The notes below the pieces were generated by a model. That model worked only from the letters and a program-made list of their open reading frames with translations. It made no database searches and was not told the origin of the DNA. A program made the translations under genes and the position numbers. A DNA stretch of 64,000 bases from an uncultured Candidatus Binatia bacterium (GTDB taxonomy: Bacteria > Desulfobacterota > Binatia > Bin18): positions 3,392,001 through 3,456,000 of the forward strand of contig OZ241744.1 in the NCBI GenBank assembly GCA_965200965.1. The letters run 5' to 3'. Below, one piece after another: positions 49,551-58,374 of the stretch. The first letter of the stretch is position 1, and every line of letters begins with the position of its first letter.

Positions 49551-52500
49551 ATGACCTTGCAGCTGGCAGATAATTTCCGCTTCCGCCGGAAGTTCGGCCA
49601 AATCGGCGAAATCACCCAGATTCCACACCTGCTGGAGATCCAACGGCTCTCGTATGAGAAATTCCTCCAGGGGGAGCCAGGCCCGGAAGAACGGATGGAA
49701 TCCGGGCTTCACGGGGTCTTTCGCTCGGTTTTTCCGATCAAGGATTTCAATGAAACCGCTTCTCTGGAGTTTGTGAGTTATACGCTTGGAGAGCCAAACT
49801 ACACGGTGGAGGAATGCCATCAGCGCGGGATGACCTATGCCGCCCCCCTGAAAGTGACCATCCAACTTGTTCTTTGGGATGTTGATCCGCGGACAGAAGC
49901 CCGCACGATCAAAAATGTCAAGGAGCAGGAAGTCTATTTTGGCGAGATCCCGCTGATGGCCTCGTATGGCACGTTCATGGTGAATGGGACCGAGCGGGTT
50001 ATTGTGAGCCAGTTGCACCGCTCGCCCGGGGTCTTCTTCGATCACGATAAGGGCAAGACCCACCCCAGTGGAAAATTCCTCTATTCCGCCCGGATCATTC
50101 CGTCCCGGGGATCGTGGATTGACTTTGAGTTTGACCCGAAAGACATCCTGTATGTCCGTATTGACCGCCGCCGCAAGTTCCACGCAACGGTGTTGCTGCG
50201 GGCTTTGGGGATGACGGTCGAGGACCTGCTCACCTACTTTTATCCGACCGATACCATTACTGTTGAGGGCGGTCGTGCCACCAAAAAATTCCAGCCGCAG
50301 CTCCTGCTCGGTCTGCGCGCGACCCACGATGTCCGACATCCGAAAACCCAGGAGGTGCTGGTCAAAGAAGGACGCCGGTTCACCCGTAACGCGATCAGAC
50401 AGATGGAGGCCGCCGAGGTTGAGCAGATCCCGATTGGCCTTGGAGAGATTGCAGGCTCGGTCACAGCCCATGATGTGCTTGACCCGGAGACACAGGAAGT
50501 CCTGCTTGAGTGCAACCAGGAGTTGAGCCAGGACGACCTTGACCGCCTGATTGAGCGCAAGGTCTCGACCATAGAGACATTCTGTATTGACGAGTCCCCC
50601 ATTGGTCCATCCCTGCGGAAGACCTTGCTCCAGGACATCCAGGACAAAATTGTTTCTCCCGAAGAGGCCAAGAAGGAGATTTATCGTCGCCTCCGTCCCG
50701 GAGATCCGCCAGCGGCCGAGGCGGTAGGGGTTTTCTTTGAAAACCTGTTCTTCAACGCCGAGCGTTACGATCTGTCCAAGGTTGGCCGCCTCAAACTCAA
50801 CTATAAACTCCAACGTGATACTCCGCTCGATCTGGGGACCCTGCGCAAAGAGGATATCCTTGAGGTCGCACGGTATCTGTTTGAGTTAAAAAACGGCAAC
50901 GGGGTCGTTGATGATATTGACCATCTTGGCAACCGGCGGGTGCGGGCGGTCGGGGAGTTGGTTGAGAATCAGTTCCGGATTGGCCTGGTCCGCATGGAGC
51001 GGGCGGTCAAAGAGCGCATGAGCCTCCAGGATGTCGAGACCCTGATGCCCCAGGAACTGGTCAACTACAAGCCTGTGTCGGCCGCGCTGAAGGAATTTTT
51101 TGGATCGAGCCAGTTGTCGCAGTTCATGGACCAGACCAACCCCTTGTCTGAAGTGGCCCATAAGCGGCGTCTGTCGGCCCTCGGACCGGGCGGCTTGACC
51201 CGGGAGCGGGCCGGTTTTGAGGTCCGGGATGTGCATCCGACCCACTATGGACGGGTGTGTCCTATCGAGACACCCGAAGGGCCGAATGTCGGGCTTATTG
51301 CAAGCCTGTCAACCTACGCCCGGGTGAATGAATTCGGCTTTATTGAGACGCCGTACCGCAAAGTTGAGGATGGTCGGGTGACGCAGGATGTGCAGTATTT
51401 GTCTGCCCTTGAAGAAGAGACGCAGACTATTGCCCCGGCCGACGCCCCAATTGACGAGGACGGGCGGTTTATCCCAGACCGCCAAGGCCAGGTTTCTTCC
51501 CGCCAGCGCGGCGAACCTGAGCAGGTCCAGCCTGATCAGGTCCAGTTGATGGACGTGTCTCCCACCCAGTTGGTGAGTGTTGCCGCGGCCCTGATTCCCT
51601 TTCTGGAACATGACGATGCGAACCGCGCCCTGATGGGTTCGAACATGCAGCGCCAGGCAGTTCCCCTGCTGCGAACCGAAGCGCCGCTGGTTGGCACTGG
51701 GATGGAACAGGTCGTTGCCCGGGATTCCGGCGTGACGGTCGTCGCCCGCCGGAGCGGCTTTGTTGAAAGTGTCGATTCCAGACGTGTTGTGATTAAGGCG
51801 GATACGCCGCTCACTGCCGGCGATGCCACGGTCGATATCTACCCGCTCATCAAGTACCAGCGTTCCAATCAGAACACCTGTGTGAACCAGCGGCCGATCG
51901 TCAAAGTTGGCGACTCTATCAAGGCCGGCGATGTGATTGCCGATGGACCGGCCACCGACATGGGGGAGTTGGCCCTGGGCAGGAATGTCCTGGTCGCGTT
52001 CATGATCTGGGAGGGCTACAATTTTGAAGACTCCATCCTGGTCAGCGAGCGTATGTTACGCGAGGATGTGTTCACTTCGGTGCATATTGAAGAATTTGAA
52101 TGCGTTGCCCGCGACACCAAACTCGGTCCAGAAGAGATCACCCAGGATATCCCGAATGTCGGTGAAGAAGCCCTCAAGGACCTTGACGGCAGCGGTATTG
52201 TCAGGATCGGCGCTGAGGTGAGGCCGGGCGACATTCTGGTCGGCAAGATCACACCCAAAGGCGAGACCCAGCTCTCTCCCGAAGAGAAGCTGCTCCGCGC
52301 CATCTTCGGCGAAAAAGCCGGAGAAGTCCGCGATACCTCGCTGCGTATCCCTCCCGGTGTTGAGGGCACGGTGATCAATGCGCGCGTCTTCTCTCGCAAG
52401 GGGGTGGAGAAAGATGAGCGGAGCCAGAGCATTGAGGACGAAGAGGTTGAGCGACTCCGCAGAGACCAGGAAGATGAAATCCGGATTGTCCAGGAGAGCA

Positions 52501-53669
52501 CATTCGGAAAAGTCCGCGACCTGACGCTGGGCAAAGTTCTGACCGTTCGGATCCGCGACGAGGAGACCCGGAAGGTCCTGTTTCCCAAAGGCCACGAGAT
52601 TAGCGAAGAGGTGCTGCGGGCCATTCCCCCCGCATACTGGGGCCGGCTCAGGCTTGGCGATGAGGCGATTGAGGACGAACTGAGCCAGAGCGTCGCCGCC
52701 ATGCTGGAGCAGATTGGCCGGATTCGTGAAGAGTCTGAGAAGAAGGTTGAGAAGCTCCGCGGTGGGGACGAGCTGGCACCCGGCGTCACCAGGATGGTGA
52801 AAGTCTTTGTCGCCATGAAACGCAAACTCCAGGCCGGCGATAAGGTGGCTGGGAGACACGGCAACAAAGGCGTACTGTCCCGGATTGTGCCCGAAGAAGA
52901 TATGCCGTATCTGGCCGACGGGACCCCGGTTGATGTCGTCCTCAACCCGCTGGGCATGCCCTCACGGATGAATCTCGGGCAGATTCTTGAGACCCATCTC
53001 GGCTGGGCCGTGCGGGGCCTCGGCGAGCAGATGGGCAACAGCCAGCCGACGCAGTGCAAAGACCGCCGTGCCCGACTCCAGGATGTCTATGACAACAAAG
53101 ACCTTGTTGACACAATTCAAGCCTTGCCGGCGTCTGATCTGAACCGCCTGATTGAGCGCGCCCAGACCGGGGTGCATGTGGCAACGCCCGTGTTCGACGG
53201 TGCTCCGGAAAAAGAAATTTCTGACCTGCTGCAAAAGGCCGGCTTGCCCGAATCTGGACAAACCGTGCTCTATGACGGGCGAACCGGCGAGCGTTTCGAT
53301 GGAGATATAACGGTTGGGGTGATGTACATCCTGAAGCTCCACCATCTTGTTGAGGACAAAATCCACGCCCGCTCTACCGGCCCCTATTCGCTGGTGACCC
53401 AGCAGCCCTTGGGCGGCAAGGCCCAGTTTGGCGGACAGCGGCTGGGAGAGATGGAAGTGTGGGCTCTTGAAGCCTATGGTGCGGCCTATAGTCTGCAAGA
53501 AATGCTGACGGTCAAGTCGGACGATGTGGCCGGTCGGACCCGTATCTATGAGGCGATTGTGAAAGGAGACAATGTACTGGAACCAGGGCTTCCCGAATCG
53601 TTCAATGTCATGGTCCGAGAACTGCAAAGCTTAGCGCTCAACGTCGAACTGCTTGAGGACGACGAATAG
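49551..53669 (+). CDS. rpoB: RNA polymerase beta subunit
   Basis: [32 protein letters not shown] and GGQRLGEME motifs. Confidence 0.99.
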
Positions 53670-53688: not shown

Positions 53689-56600
53689 ATGGAAGATCTT
53701 CTTGGCCTTTTTGAGAAGCCTCAGAATCCGGTCCGTTTTAATGCTATCCGGGTCGCGCTGGCCCCTCCCGATATGGTTCGTTCCTGGTCGCACGGAGAGG
53801 TCAAGAAGCCTGAAACCATCAACTACCGCACATTCAAGCCCGAGCGCGACGGCCTGTTCTGCGCCAAAATTTTTGGTCCGACCAAAGATTACGAGTGTAA
53901 CTGCGGCAAGTACAAACGGATGCGTCACCGTGGGGTCGTGTGTGAAAAGTGTGGTGTTGAGGTGATTCAGTCCAAAGTACGCCGGGAGCGGATGGGGCAT
54001 ATCCCCCTGGCCAGCCCTGTCACCCATATCTGGTTCCTCAAAAGCCTGCCGAGCCGGATTGGCACCCTGCTGGATATGACGCTCAAGGATCTTGAACGGG
54101 TCCTGTATTTTGAGTCGTATATTGTGACCGACCCGCTCCAGACGCCGCTGAGCAAGAAACAGGTCCTGTCCGAAACCCGCTACCGGACACTGCTTGAGGA
54201 GTTCGGTTCTGGCAGTTTTCAGGCTGGAATGGGAGCCGAGGCGATCCGGCTGTTGTTACAGGAGTTGAATCTGGAAAAACTGGCCGAAGAGTTGCGCGCC
54301 GAGCTGATGGAAACGGGGAGCGAGGCGCGCCGCAAAAAGATCACCAAACGCCTCAAGGTCATCAACGCGTTTCGGCACTCCGGCAATCTGCCCGAATGGA
54401 TGATCCTGGAAGTGGTTCCGGTCATTCCTCCCGACCTCCGCCCCCTCGTGCCTCTGGACGGCGGGCGCTTTGCCACCTCCGACCTGAATGATCTGTATCG
54501 GCGGGTGATCAACCGCAATAACCGCCTCAAACGCCTGATTGAGTTGAGCGCGCCCGACATCATTGTTCGCAATGAAAAGCGGATGCTCCAAGAGGCAGTT
54601 GATGCCTTGTTTGACAATGGCCGGCGCGGGAAGCCCTTGACCGGGCCCAGTAAACGGCCGCTCAAGTCCCTGTCCGATATGCTCAAAGGCAAAGGCGGAC
54701 GTTTTCGGCAGAACCTGCTCGGCAAACGGGTGGACTATTCGGGCCGGTCCGTCATTGTGATCGGTCCCGAGTTGCGCCTGCATCAGTGCGGGTTGCCCAA
54801 GCATATGGCCTTGGAACTGTTCAAGCCCTTTATCTACAACAAGCTCGAAGAACGGGGCTATACTACGACCATCAAGAGCGCCAAAAAGATGCTGGAACAA
54901 GAGCGCCCGGAAGTCTGGGATATCCTGGACGAGGTTATCAAGGAGCATCCGGTTCTGCTCAACCGTGCCCCAACCCTGCACCGGCTGGGCATCCAGGCGT
55001 TTGAGCCCGTCCTGATTGAGGGCAAGGCAATTCAACTCCATCCCCTGGTCTGCACGGCCTATAACGCCGATTTTGACGGCGACCAGATGGCGGTTCATGT
55101 GCCCCTCTCGGTCGAAGCCCAGGTCGAAGCCCGTACCCTGATGATGTCAACCAATAACATCCTGTCACCCACCCACGGCAGGGCGGTTATCGCCCCGACC
55201 CAGGATATTGTGATGGGCCTGTATACCATGACCCGTGAGCGGCCCGGGGCAAAAGGTGAGGGGAAAATCTTCAGCGGTCCAGACGAAGTTCGTATTGCCT
55301 ACGATCAGGGTCAGGTCGCACTCCAGGCTCAGATCAGGGTCCGCATGGACGGACAACTGGTCGAGACAACGGTCGGGCGGATCGTGCTGTATGATATCGT
55401 GCCGCCTGAGATTCCGTTTTCTGAAGTCAACCGGACGATGAAGAAAAAGGAGTTGGGCAGCCTGCTGGACAGCGCCTTTCGCAAAGCCGACAACAAAGCC
55501 ACCGTCATTTTTGCCGATCGTCTGAAGGATATGGGCTTTGAGTACGCAACCAAAGCCGGAATCTCATTCGATATTCGAGACATGGTGATCCCCAAGAAAA
55601 AAGAGGAACTGCTCAACACCGCCCAGGCGGATATCCAGGAGATCCAGGAGCAGTACTACAAGGGGCTTATCACCGATGGCGAGCGTCATAACAAAGTCGT
55701 TGATACCTGGGTCACGGTCACCGATGAGGTGGCCGATAAAATGCGCATCGGTTTTCGGGAGGATCGTCAGGGATTCAACCCTGTCTTCATGATGGCTGAC
55801 TCGGGGGCGCGGGGTAGCACCCAGCAGATGCGCCAACTGGCCGGGATGCGCGGGCTGATGGCAAAGCCATCCGGCGAGATCATTGAAACGCCGATCACTG
55901 CCAACTTCACAGAGGGACTGTCTGTCTTGCAATACTTCATTTCAACCCACGGGGCACGCAAGGGTCTTGCCGACACCGCCCTGAAAACAGCCAACTCGGG
56001 CTATCTGACCCGCCGTCTGGTTGATGTGGCCCAAGACTGCATCATCAGCGAACACGACTGCGGCACAATTGACGGCATTGAGATGGGCCCGCTGGTTGAA
56101 GGCGGAGAAATCATTGAGGGGCTGGGCGAGCGCGTCCTCGGCCGGGTTGCCCTTGATGATATCCGCGATTCGTTCTCCAACGAAGTCTTCGTTCCGGCCA
56201 ACGAAGAGATTGACGAGGAGCGGGTGCAGCGGATTGAAGACACCGGTATTGAAAAGCTCTCGATTCGCTCGGCTTTGACGTGTCAGAGCCGACGCGGGGT
56301 GTGCATCAAGTGCTATGGGCGTGACTTGGCGCGTGGGCGTATGGTCAACATCGGTGAAGCGGTTGGCATCATGGCGGCCCAGTCAATTGGCGAGCCCGGC
56401 ACCCAGCTTACGATGCGGACCTTCCACATCGGTGGAGCGGCCAGTGACGAGGCAAAAATAGCGGACCGGTCCACCCGCAACGGGGGGACGCTGCGCTATA
56501 TTGCTCTCAAGACGGTCAGCAACCGTGAGGGCGATCAGGTCGTCACGAATCGGAACGGTAAGGTCGCTATTGTGGACAGTTCATCAGGTCAGGATCGGGA

Positions 56601-58374
56601 GTTGGAGCGTCATTCGATTGAGTACGGGGCGAAGCTCAAGAAAAAGGACGGGTCCACAGTCGAACCGAAGGAACTGATTGCGGAGTGGAACCCCTACATG
56701 GTTCCTATCCTGACCGAGGTCGCCGGCACGATCAAATTCGTTGACATCAGTGAAGGCATTAATATGGAGGAGAAGGTTGATGAGGCTGGTTTATCGACCC
56801 GGGTCATCATCCCAATTCAGACTGATTCGTTGGCTGAGAAGATACACTCTTGTACCGAGGAGATAACCAAACTGGAGGAGGAGCAACATCCAGAGGAGAT
56901 TCGTAAGAAGTACACAGGGAGGATAAGAAGTCAGAAAACCAAGAGGGCTGCTCTGCAGGACGAGTTGAAGCAGATGCAAAAACCCAAGCCTCCTGATGTT
57001 GAGTGGTTTTTCGGGCTTCAGATACACTCTTGTACCGAGGAGATAACCAAACTGGAGGAGGAGCAACATCCAGAGGAGATTCGTAAGGCGTACACACGGA
57101 GGATAGAAAGCAAGAGGGCTACTCTGAAGGGCGAGTTGGAGCGGATTCGTAAGGCGTACACACGGAGGATAGAAAGCAAGAGAGCTACTCTGCGCGAACG
57201 GGAGGACGAGTTGGAGCAGATGCAAAAACTCAAGCCTCCTGATATTGAGTGGTTTTTCGGGCTTCAAATGCTTGAGGAGATACGCTCTTGTACCGAGGAG
57301 ATAACCAAACTGGAGGAGGAGCAACAGGAGGAGATTCGTAAGGCGTACACACGGAGGATAGAAAGCAAGAGAGCTACTCTGCGCGAACGGGAGGACGAGT
57401 TGGAGCAGATGCAAAAACTCAAGCCTCGCATCTTGATCAAGGACGATAAGGGGAAAACAGCCAAGCTGCCCAGCGGTCCTGATGCGGTCTATACGCTTTC
57501 TGCTGGTACCCGTGTTGACGTGGTTGAGGGCCAGCAGGTTGAAGCGGGTGACGTGCTGGCCAGGATTCCTCGAACCACTTCACGCAAGACGAAAGATATT
57601 ACGGGCGGTCTGCCTCGAGTGGCAGATCTGTTTGAAGCCCGAAAACCCAAGGAATTTGCCGTCATCAGCGAAATTGATGGCATGGTGTCTTTTGGCAAGG
57701 ATACCAAAGGCAAGCAGAAGGTTGTCATCACGCCGGATGTGGGAGATCCGCGTGACTATCTTATCCCGCGTGGAAAACATATCAGTGTCCGCGAGGGTGA
57801 TTATGTCCGGGCCGGCGACCCCCTGATGGACGGCTCGCCCAATCCGCACGACATCCTTGGCGTGCTCGGAGAAAAGGAACTCGCCAAGCGGTTGGTTGAT
57901 GACGTGCAGGAGATTTATCGCTTGCAGGGTGTCCATATGCACGACAAGCATATTGAGGTCATCATTCGCCAGATGATGCGCCGGGTGGCTGTCACCCAGG
58001 TCGGCGATTCTGATTTTCTGCTTGGCGAGCAGGTCGAAAAATGGCGATTCCAGGAGGAGGTCGAAAAGGTCCTGGCCGAGCAAGGTCAACCGCCCGAGGC
58101 GAAATCACTCCTCATGGGTATCACCAAGGCCAGTCTATCGACCGACAGCTTTATTTCCGCGGCTTCATTCCAGGAAACGACCAAGGTGCTGACCGAAGCC
58201 GCCATCAATGGGAAGGTCGATATGTTGTCGGGGCTCAAAGAAAACGTCATTATGGGCCGACTGATCCCAGCCGGGACCGGCAACCCCAGTTATACTGCAA
58301 TTGAGGCCGAGACTGTCGAAGCGCCGGGTGATGAAGAACAGGGTCAACTGCCGCCGATAGTTGAGGCGTCGTAA
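53689..58374 (+). CDS. rpoC: RNA polymerase beta' subunit (1561 aa, with a ~195-aa repeat insertion in SI3)
   Basis: Zinc finger, [15 protein letters not shown]...DITGGLPRV motifs; insertion at ~56840-57426. Confidence 0.99.
56840..57426 (+). repeat. In-frame tandem repeat (three ~180-bp units plus an internal 66-bp duplication) inside rpoC
   Basis: AGATAC(A/G)CTCTTGTACCGAGGAGATAACCAAACTGGAGGAGGAGCAACA starts at 56840, 57020 and 57278; GATTCGTAAGGCGTACACACGGAGGATAGAAAGCAAGAG at 57078, 57144 and 57333. Confidence 0.95.

Follow-up and report, generated by a model that had tools for sequence, protein, structure and literature searches.

Results

A large insertion in the beta-prime subunit of RNA polymerase

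A stretch of 64,000 nucleotides from an uncultured Candidatus Binatia bacterium (assembly GCA_965200965.1, contig OZ241744.1, positions 3,392,001 to 3,456,000) was analyzed; this whole stretch is called the window, and plain coordinates are counted from its first letter. The assembly is one contig of 3.62 Mb and is 99% complete, and the gene context of the window is the rplK-rpoBC-S10 region. Our subject is an insertion in rpoC (53689..58374, forward strand), the single-copy gene for the beta-prime subunit of RNA polymerase (RNAP), which encodes 1561 amino acids and scores above the cut-off of TIGR02386. Between the trigger helices lies the SI3 domain, made of two SBHM domains (56443..57585, forward strand, insertion included, boundaries approximate). 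Within SI3, 198 residues (56827..57420, forward strand) replace the SBHMb loop equivalent to about residues 1063-1073 of E. coli beta-prime, with IPIQTD on the left and KPRILIKD on the right. The net gain in length is 197 residues over the RpoC of the sister species G006. Both trigger helices and the NADFDGD motif are intact.

The insertion is built, all on the forward strand, of unit 1 (56827..56988), linker 1 (56989..57021, 11 residues modelled with a low predicted local distance difference test score, pLDDT), unit 2 (57022..57234), linker 2 (57235..57273) and unit 3 (57274..57420). Unit 1, a predicted helix-turn-helix, retains three residues that units 2 and 3 have lost. Unit 2 carries the 66-bp (22-residue) sub-duplication that had been described in it, now located at 57082-57147, and has an exact run of 95 nt in common with unit 3; the next longest exact repeat is 68 nt. 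A preliminary description, made from the letters alone, spoke of three near-identical units. There are indeed three, but the PPD(V/I)EWFFGLQ linker is found in just two of them, the second helix of unit 1 differs from that of the other two, and unit 3 has no HP turn. Its statement that the repeat keeps the reading frame holds for each of the eight exact-repeat offsets (66, 180, 189, 246, 255, 258, 435 and 438), all multiples of 3, and its impression of purine-rich DNA of lower GC content was correct (purines 64% versus 53%, GC 50.3% versus 56.5%, insertion versus remaining rpoC). The array was not reported by TRF. The insertion is near neutral in charge (46 D/E, 44 K/R), and the second helix of the hairpin is rich in Lys and Arg.

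The insertion is present in independent assemblies

Part of the window was found in 12 public runs from four studies, of which those named are sponge metagenomes or metagenomes; there was no RNA run among those listed. Short-read contigs from three of the studies tile the insertion. In run X1, which may be the source sample of the assembly, all ten contigs compared are at least 99% alike, without other letters, with a depth of 43-55 where the sequence is unique and of 86 and 102 for the two repeat pieces listed. The eight listed X1 pieces contain 462 of the 493 unique 31-mers of the region; the other 31, at the tip of unit 3, match exactly in contigs of X3, X5 and X6. These runs, like the low-depth X2, belong to studies other than that of X1, and their contigs carry the insertion with substitutions. 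In addition, the three-unit layout recurs in two ENA proteins, P0006 and P0007, both of which lack one residue at the turn of unit 2, so that all full alleles (3 of 3) have three units. A simple possibility is that the array was created during assembly. It could draw on the fact that the evidence consists of short-read contigs and that the array is spanned by no single contig or long read. However, the exact tiling by unitigs at the expected depths, the variants from other studies, the two further full alleles and a homologous insertion in a sister species (see below) leave an artefact with a negligible probability, in agreement with the earlier argument against assembly stutter. The insertion is real.

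In run X2, an abundant relative joins across the site (window 56783-57427) with only 58 letters between, that is, with an insertion-free rpoC; the same run also holds low-depth contigs that bear the insertion.

A hairpin gained once and amplified separately

Among 5627 candidates a single homologue was found, P0003, an RpoC with 113 inserted residues at the same site. In a tree built without SI3 (and leaving out genome G047), P0003 is the sister of this species. Its insertion has the same two helices, in a form to which unit 1 is the closest, but its duplication periods are 25, 11 and 25 residues and it has no linker, whereas here the periods are 22 and about 60-85 residues. Because P0003 shares the two helices, differs in its duplications and lacks the linker, it is shown that there was a single gain of a hairpin of about 55 residues, in the common ancestor of P0003 and this species once G007 had split off, and that separate amplification in the two gave 198 residues here and 113 in P0003. 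The appendage is therefore length-variable, as had been proposed, between species; within the species it is not, all three full alleles having three units. The short periods of 11, 22 and 25 residues all come close to a whole number of helical turns, for which selection or microhomology may be responsible. In the order, the insertion occurs in 1 of 56 genomes, besides the sister protein; the class-wide search covered 150 of its 543 matches, and frequency was counted within the order. A second match in an order genome (E 0.006) was rejected as a TPR protein. P0003 also has, near residue 580 and outside SI3, a further insertion of about 23 residues derived from a duplication.

Bases 57250-57268 of linker 2 are identical at 18 of 19 positions to the opposite strand of rpoC at 57631-57649 (minus strand, antisense of the codons of the second trigger helix). 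This is the sole such match in the genome, and none of 400 random segments gave one, which points to a template switch onto the opposite rpoC strand as the likely origin of the linker. Linker 2 also matches a CoA-transferase-like gene over a 22-mer (E 0.04), which was put down to chance. In X3, X5, P0006 and P0007, two substitutions are seen in unit 2 and in unit 3 alike. Since the same two changes have appeared jointly in both copies, conversion between units 2 and 3 is shown.

No donor of the hairpin was found in the genome itself by blastn, tblastn or a hidden Markov model of the unit. The beta-prime clamp hairpin, considered for its resemblance, gave no score in that search. Among 1.84 billion representatives the sole match, P0001 (E 2.7e-4), was dropped as an unrelated repeat protein. 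The pattern of the insertion was absent from JGI metagenomes (0/140 and 0/595), viral contigs (0/23) and GTDB contigs (0/394), the ESM Atlas gave no usable match, and Pfam, PADLOC and PHROGs gave weak coiled-coil matches only. A likeness to the coiled-coil stalk in the RpoC of G041 was discarded, as its score of 44 was reached by 921 of 2000 shuffles and the reversed control scored 43.

A selfish in-frame repeat, one of the origins suggested at first, would be expected elsewhere in the genome, but blastn and tblastn found no second copy there, and none of the 60 most dispersed genomic 20-mers lies within rpoBC or rpoA. Nor was there a match to an intein family, in the insertion or in the whole of RpoC, among Pfam and NCBIfam, and the model is all-helical. 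Separately, a dispersed palindromic repeat was noticed at at least about 26 loci of the genome, none in rpoBC or rpoA.

Position within SI3 and predicted structure

The left flank of the insertion aligns to residue 1063 of E. coli beta-prime, and the right flank resumes at about 1072-1074 (Pseudomonas and Xanthomonas chains). SI3 together with the insertion was modelled by AlphaFold2 from 34 sequences (mean pLDDT 79, predicted template modelling score 0.59), with the insertion covered by no relative. In the model both SBHM folds are intact, and the SI3 part superimposes on 4iqz_A (Z 22.8, root-mean-square deviation 2.0, 176 residues aligned). The insertion is modelled as four long helices without strands, the predicted helices being 142-162, 164-192, 206-218 (low confidence), 224-276 and 283-339. 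The longest predicted hairpin runs from unit 2 to unit 3 with its turn at linker 2 (PPDIEW), and its helices of 53-57 residues are about 8 nm long. Thus the earlier idea of a lineage-specific helical appendage inside SI3 is borne out by the prediction, and the inserted module, as predicted, does not have the SBHM fold of its host. Foldseek matches were dominated by SBHM domains; fold matches to the arm (VIA) are generic helical hairpins (Z up to 10.2).

In E. coli, SBHMa faces the secondary channel and SBHMb the downstream DNA channel, and it is in the loop concerned that SI3 comes nearest to downstream DNA, with D1073 at 16 Å from it (PMC2939025). T1068 in the SBHMb loop is phosphorylated by T7 Gp0.7, which alters pausing and Rho termination (PMC2939025); the beta-prime jaw, adjoining SI3, binds T7 Gp2 (PMC3541766). 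SI3 of E. coli must move at every nucleotide addition (10.1101/2021.01.27.428476).

The arm had been placed at the entrance of the secondary channel, and it was speculated that it might be a tethered mimic of Gre or DksA reaching into that channel. Such a mimic could be recognized in the predicted antiparallel coiled coil and in the acidic EEEQ(HP)EE turn of unit 1. However, the site maps to SBHMb, the half of SI3 that faces downstream DNA, and the genome retains greA, with its acidic motif intact, as well as a DksA-like gene (below the Pfam cut-off). It should also be noted that no Gre or DksA match to the insertion was obtained (Pfam up to E 1, NCBIfam up to E 0.01), that the tip is polymorphic, and that the longest modelled hairpin turns at PPDIEW and not at the acidic tip. 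Because of the position on SBHMb and the retained factors, it seems highly improbable that the arm is such a mimic.

Another reading is that the arm touches downstream DNA, the jaw or the beta lobe, with effects on pausing, open-complex stability or the displacement of roadblocks; the changes in SI3 would then be co-adaptation. The 16 Å distance and the effects of phosphorylating the same loop (PMC2939025) agree with this, as does the Lys/Arg-rich second helix. In addition, dN/dS (the ratio of nonsynonymous to synonymous divergence) of SI3 is raised in pairs of genomes of which one has an insertion (0.18 versus 0.02; 0.11 versus 0.02) and not in two insertion-free pairs (0.02-0.05). Against tuning, the arm lacks conservation in sequence even from strain to strain, it has almost no net charge, and the patchy presence of insertions in near-identical species fits conflict better than stable regulation. 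We consider tuning of transcription unlikely.

Rapid evolution of SI3 and of the RNAP genes

Compared with the sister species, RpoC outside SI3 is 95.6% identical, while SI3 without the insertion is only 63.4% identical. Of the amino acid differences within the species, 24 of 42 and 18 of 29 are located in SI3 plus insertion, which together make up 383 residues (p 5e-6 and 2e-5). On the branch of this genome, nonsynonymous and synonymous changes stand at 170:87 in the RNAP genes versus 64:127 in 18 neighboring genes (Fisher p 8e-12; rplJ, rplC and trpB were left out of the branch counts). A likewise accelerated set of RNAP genes was seen in G007 (p 1e-7), not in G004, and G006 was slightly opposite. 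Because the neighboring genes are not accelerated and secY has a dN/dS of 0.01, the acceleration is not a genome-wide decay. Within rpoC, the branch counts are 43:6 for SI3 versus 49:32 for the gene outside SI3 and jaw (p 0.001). With pooled K4, K0/K4 of SI3 is 2.1-2.3, the remainder of RNAP being at about 0.3 and other genes at 0.13; across yardsticks and ways of handling gaps the SI3 value ranges from about 1 to 2.3. It is fair to say that on this branch the rate of the host SI3 is neutral or higher. Furthermore, in G007, which has no insertion, both SI3 and jaw are fast (K0/K4 1.0-1.4). This indicates that the pressure is not merely compensation for the insertion.

The neighboring rpoB (49551..53669, forward strand) has no insertion and is accelerated on this branch (63 nonsynonymous versus 35 synonymous changes). 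Its branch-specific amino acid changes cluster at about residues 300-400 (13:2) and 1000-1200 (19:1), which we take to be regions of beta lineage-specific insertions.

Other additions to RNAP in related genomes

SI3 could be scored in 47 of the 56 order genomes. A large insertion at its tip was found in five: this genome, G002, G004, G005 and G056. The other four have an unrelated helical domain of 212-238 residues, about 10 residues further on (L037:13463-14098, L036:5843-6538, L035:5894-6529 and L034:5825-6538), predicted as a helical bundle with a Gly-rich hydrophobic hairpin. This second insertion is present in G005 and absent from G006, the two being 96% identical up to the junctions. Its dN/dS is 0.3-0.6, and the host gene has a higher dS, so that the insertion has probably spread laterally between two genera. 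Its weak resemblance to dynamin-like stalks (Z 10.2 for MxB and 9.6 for IniA) is no stronger than generic bundles give.

Nine of the 56 genomes have an Mrr-like nuclease, in one copy each. In four (this genome, G005, G007 and G056) it precedes RpoA as an in-frame N-terminal fusion, in G058 it stands at the start of RpoB (L058), in G041 it lies inside RpoC on a coiled-coil stalk (L031:11228-11959), and in three it is free. The native start Met of the host subunit is gone in G007 and G058 and still present in this genome, and the nuclease is also fused to RpoA in P0005 and P0020. The fusion of this genome (L056:1504-3195, C1:3465553-3467244) lies 9.5 kb beyond the end of the window; its N-terminal extension of about 224 residues has low GC (47%), a strong ribosome-binding site and an intact-looking PD-(D/E)xK motif, and 9 of 11 members of its cluster are full-length alleles of 563 residues. 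The E...D...(E/D)xK catalytic motif is present, and the D, C-K and Y residues are invariant in nine of nine aligned rows. The G041 copy scores 25.2 bits with the Mrr_cat profile (cut-off 21); the nuclease of this genome matches PHROG 244 (E 4e-7), and our own Pfam search did not flag the rpoA-fused copy. The tree of the nuclease does not follow the host subunit, which implies several captures. Single queries of phage records and viral contigs did not find the nuclease, and neither did a search of the PDB.

Two smaller additions were seen: G060 has a foreign RpoB insertion of 138 residues and lower GC near residue 1001 (L117:10776-11192), without a PADLOC, NCBIfam or PHROG match, and G047 has a zinc-ribbon-like CxxC...CxxC insertion of 27 residues in RpoC near residue 210 (L038:10838-10918). 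In total, 10 of the 31 genomes scored from genera g1 and g8 (Ca. Binatia) have an RNAP addition. When 25 regions of 7-37 kb each were compared, every inspected real gain of more than 100 residues was in rpoA, rpoB or rpoC; open frames extending upstream of ribosomal and trp genes, most of them in G014 and G057, were counted as read-through without an inspection of each. Upstream read-through, and not insertion, also explains the long RpoC frames of G014, of G057 and of genus g35 and the long RpoA frame of G020. No insertion was found in DnaE and GyrA of genera g1 and g8. Elsewhere, in G018 (C10) and G066 (C698) of genus g4, dnaE is interrupted near residue 765 by an in-frame stretch of about 420 codons, probably an intein, and the SecA of this genome (L131, C1:919530-923168) is 1191 residues long with two apparent helical insertions.

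The nuclease and the arm might be connected, either because the arm docks or restrains the RNAP-fused nuclease or because insertions are spread by nuclease-driven conversion (homing in trans). An SI3 insertion is present in three of the four alpha-fusion genomes (this genome, G005 and G056), the pairs G005/G006 and G056/G042 differ in both traits, and the junctions are precise. On the other hand, G007 has the nuclease without an insertion, G002 and G004 have an insertion without the nuclease, the two SI3 insertions are unrelated, the nucleases of this genome and G005 fall in different clades, and neither long co-converted flanks nor long recombination tracts around the insertions were seen. 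Such a partnership is in our view even less probable than tuning.

Discussion

We propose, at about even chances, that the insertion is a non-catalytic steric shield, driven by conflict with an antagonist that binds RNAP, such as a phage protein. An element of about 55 residues entered the SBHMb loop in the ancestor of this species and P0003 and was amplified differently in each; units 2 and 3 are kept alike by conversion, and the spacer was probably supplied by a template switch onto the opposite rpoC strand. The predicted result is an arm of four long helices, the longest pair about 8 nm, that leaves both SBHM folds in place. The fast SI3 around it, the accelerated RNAP genes and the other appendages of relatives may then have a common cause in a conflict where the downstream DNA channel opens. 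This proposal rests on three observations: the loop is a phage target in E. coli, the surface around it changes at the neutral rate or faster, and a second, probably laterally spread insertion sits at the same tip. The pressure is moreover specific to RNAP and visible where there is no insertion. Since a shield would work by bulk and not by its exact sequence, the arm's own sequence would be free to drift.

Several results weigh against this proposal. The excess of SI3 over the neutral rate is not robust. Away from gaps, K0 of SI3 is 0.14-0.17, above a pooled K4 of 0.09 (p 0.02 to 4e-5), and it is not above the K4 of trp plus map, 0.135 (p 0.15-0.53); the pairwise dN/dS of SI3 with G007 is 0.63; and the jaw is not accelerated on the branch of this genome (K0 1/126). 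The insertion itself looks neutral in sequence: 16 of 18 strain differences in 56740-57500 are nonsynonymous versus an expected fraction of 0.75 (p 0.14), and dN is close to dS between its units. Amplification requires no particular explanation in a genome with 113 clusters of near-identical local repeats, and microhomology by itself can produce duplications that keep the helical register. In E. coli, SI3 can be deleted given one suppressor (PMC11077087). The nuclease is also fused in frame once to GcvH (P0018), and fusions are thus not confined to RNAP. The compared genomes are kin and not independent. Finally, the link to T7 is an analogy with E. coli, and the antagonist and the protection are what we infer from the pattern.

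Many of these points would be expected of a tolerated passenger. SI3 would have lost most of its constraint in this symbiont clade, a stray coiled-coil fragment would have landed in a permissive loop, and slippage, template switching and conversion would have made it grow, the only selection being on frame and solubility. The loss of constraint is plausible given that the E. coli domain is dispensable with one suppressor (PMC11077087). Neutral-looking polymorphism and unit divergence, the local repeat clusters with their many in-frame helical duplications, a K0/K4 of SI3 indistinguishable from 1 with the conservative yardstick, and the long branches and 3.6-Mb genomes of this bacterium and G007 all agree with it, and for the arm alone a passenger explains the data as well as a shield does. 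What it leaves unexplained is the wider pattern, namely an acceleration specific to RNAP, a fast jaw in G007, a second laterally spread insertion at the same tip with dN/dS 0.3-0.6, and nuclease fusions with intact motifs on three subunits; nor does it account for the three units kept in all three full alleles. We therefore regard a passenger as possible but less probable than a shield.

A broader picture can be proposed only tentatively: in sponge-associated Ca. Binatia, RNAP might be an arms-race platform. Where the downstream DNA channel opens, it would be rebuilt with interchangeable helical shields, this repeat arm being one seen in the course of its amplification, and an active restriction-like nuclease would have been attached several times independently to alpha, beta or beta-prime. 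If this were so, the core transcriptase would carry its own transcription-coupled anti-phage nuclease. If the conflict as such is true, a universally conserved enzyme is under rapid surface evolution with capture of domains at species level, and RNAP-tethered nucleases are a possible undescribed defence. Whatever its cause, a predicted arm of about 8 nm on SI3 is a natural experiment on the load that a trigger loop can carry, and its history can be read: a gain, a differing amplification in two sisters, a linker that appears to be templated, and ongoing conversion. For the clade, rpoA, rpoB and rpoC are poor clock markers.

No literature report was found of this insertion, of a nuclease fused to an RNAP subunit or of a shielding domain inserted on RNAP, subscription papers being mostly outside the search. 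The same search gave no report of an all-helical, species-level, repeat-amplified SI3 arm; Table S4 of PMC11515920, on rare beta-prime variants, may bear on this. The survey of BEAN/HABAS insertions does not use the word "nuclease" in its main text (PMC11515920).

Palindromic elements of the Rickettsia type and inteins are selfish in-frame insertions. The arm resembles them in being an in-frame insertion tolerated in an essential gene, and differs in being single-copy, not palindromic as a whole and free of an intein or endonuclease domain. With GreA, GreB and DksA it has in common an antiparallel coiled coil with acidic residues at one turn; it differs in having no sequence match, in lying on the wrong face of SI3 and in occurring beside retained host factors. 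Lineage-specific insertions in beta-prime are an already known kind, and the present one belongs with them: it is in frame, absent from relatives and leaves the catalytic motifs intact. In E. coli SI3/beta'i6 (2AUK, 4IQZ) the host domain and position are the same, but about 10 residues form the SBHMb loop where a helical repeat of 198 residues stands here. All known trigger-loop insertions consist of SBHM repeats, according to Bao and Landick (10.1101/2021.01.27.428476). The lineage-specific insertions surveyed in PMC11515920 are described there as ancient, tree-following and of BEAN, HABAS or sLC folds. Like them and like the cyanobacterial Si3, the arm is nested in an earlier surface insertion of beta-prime; the present additions differ in being species-level, patchy, fast-evolving and of unrelated folds. 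Resistance related to T7 is reported as point substitution in RNAP (E1158K and E1188K, PMC3541766). Another parallel is with the surfaces of E. coli RNAP that phages target: the insertion lies in the loop equivalent to that of T1068, and SI3, together with the jaw in G007, is the part that changes fastest.

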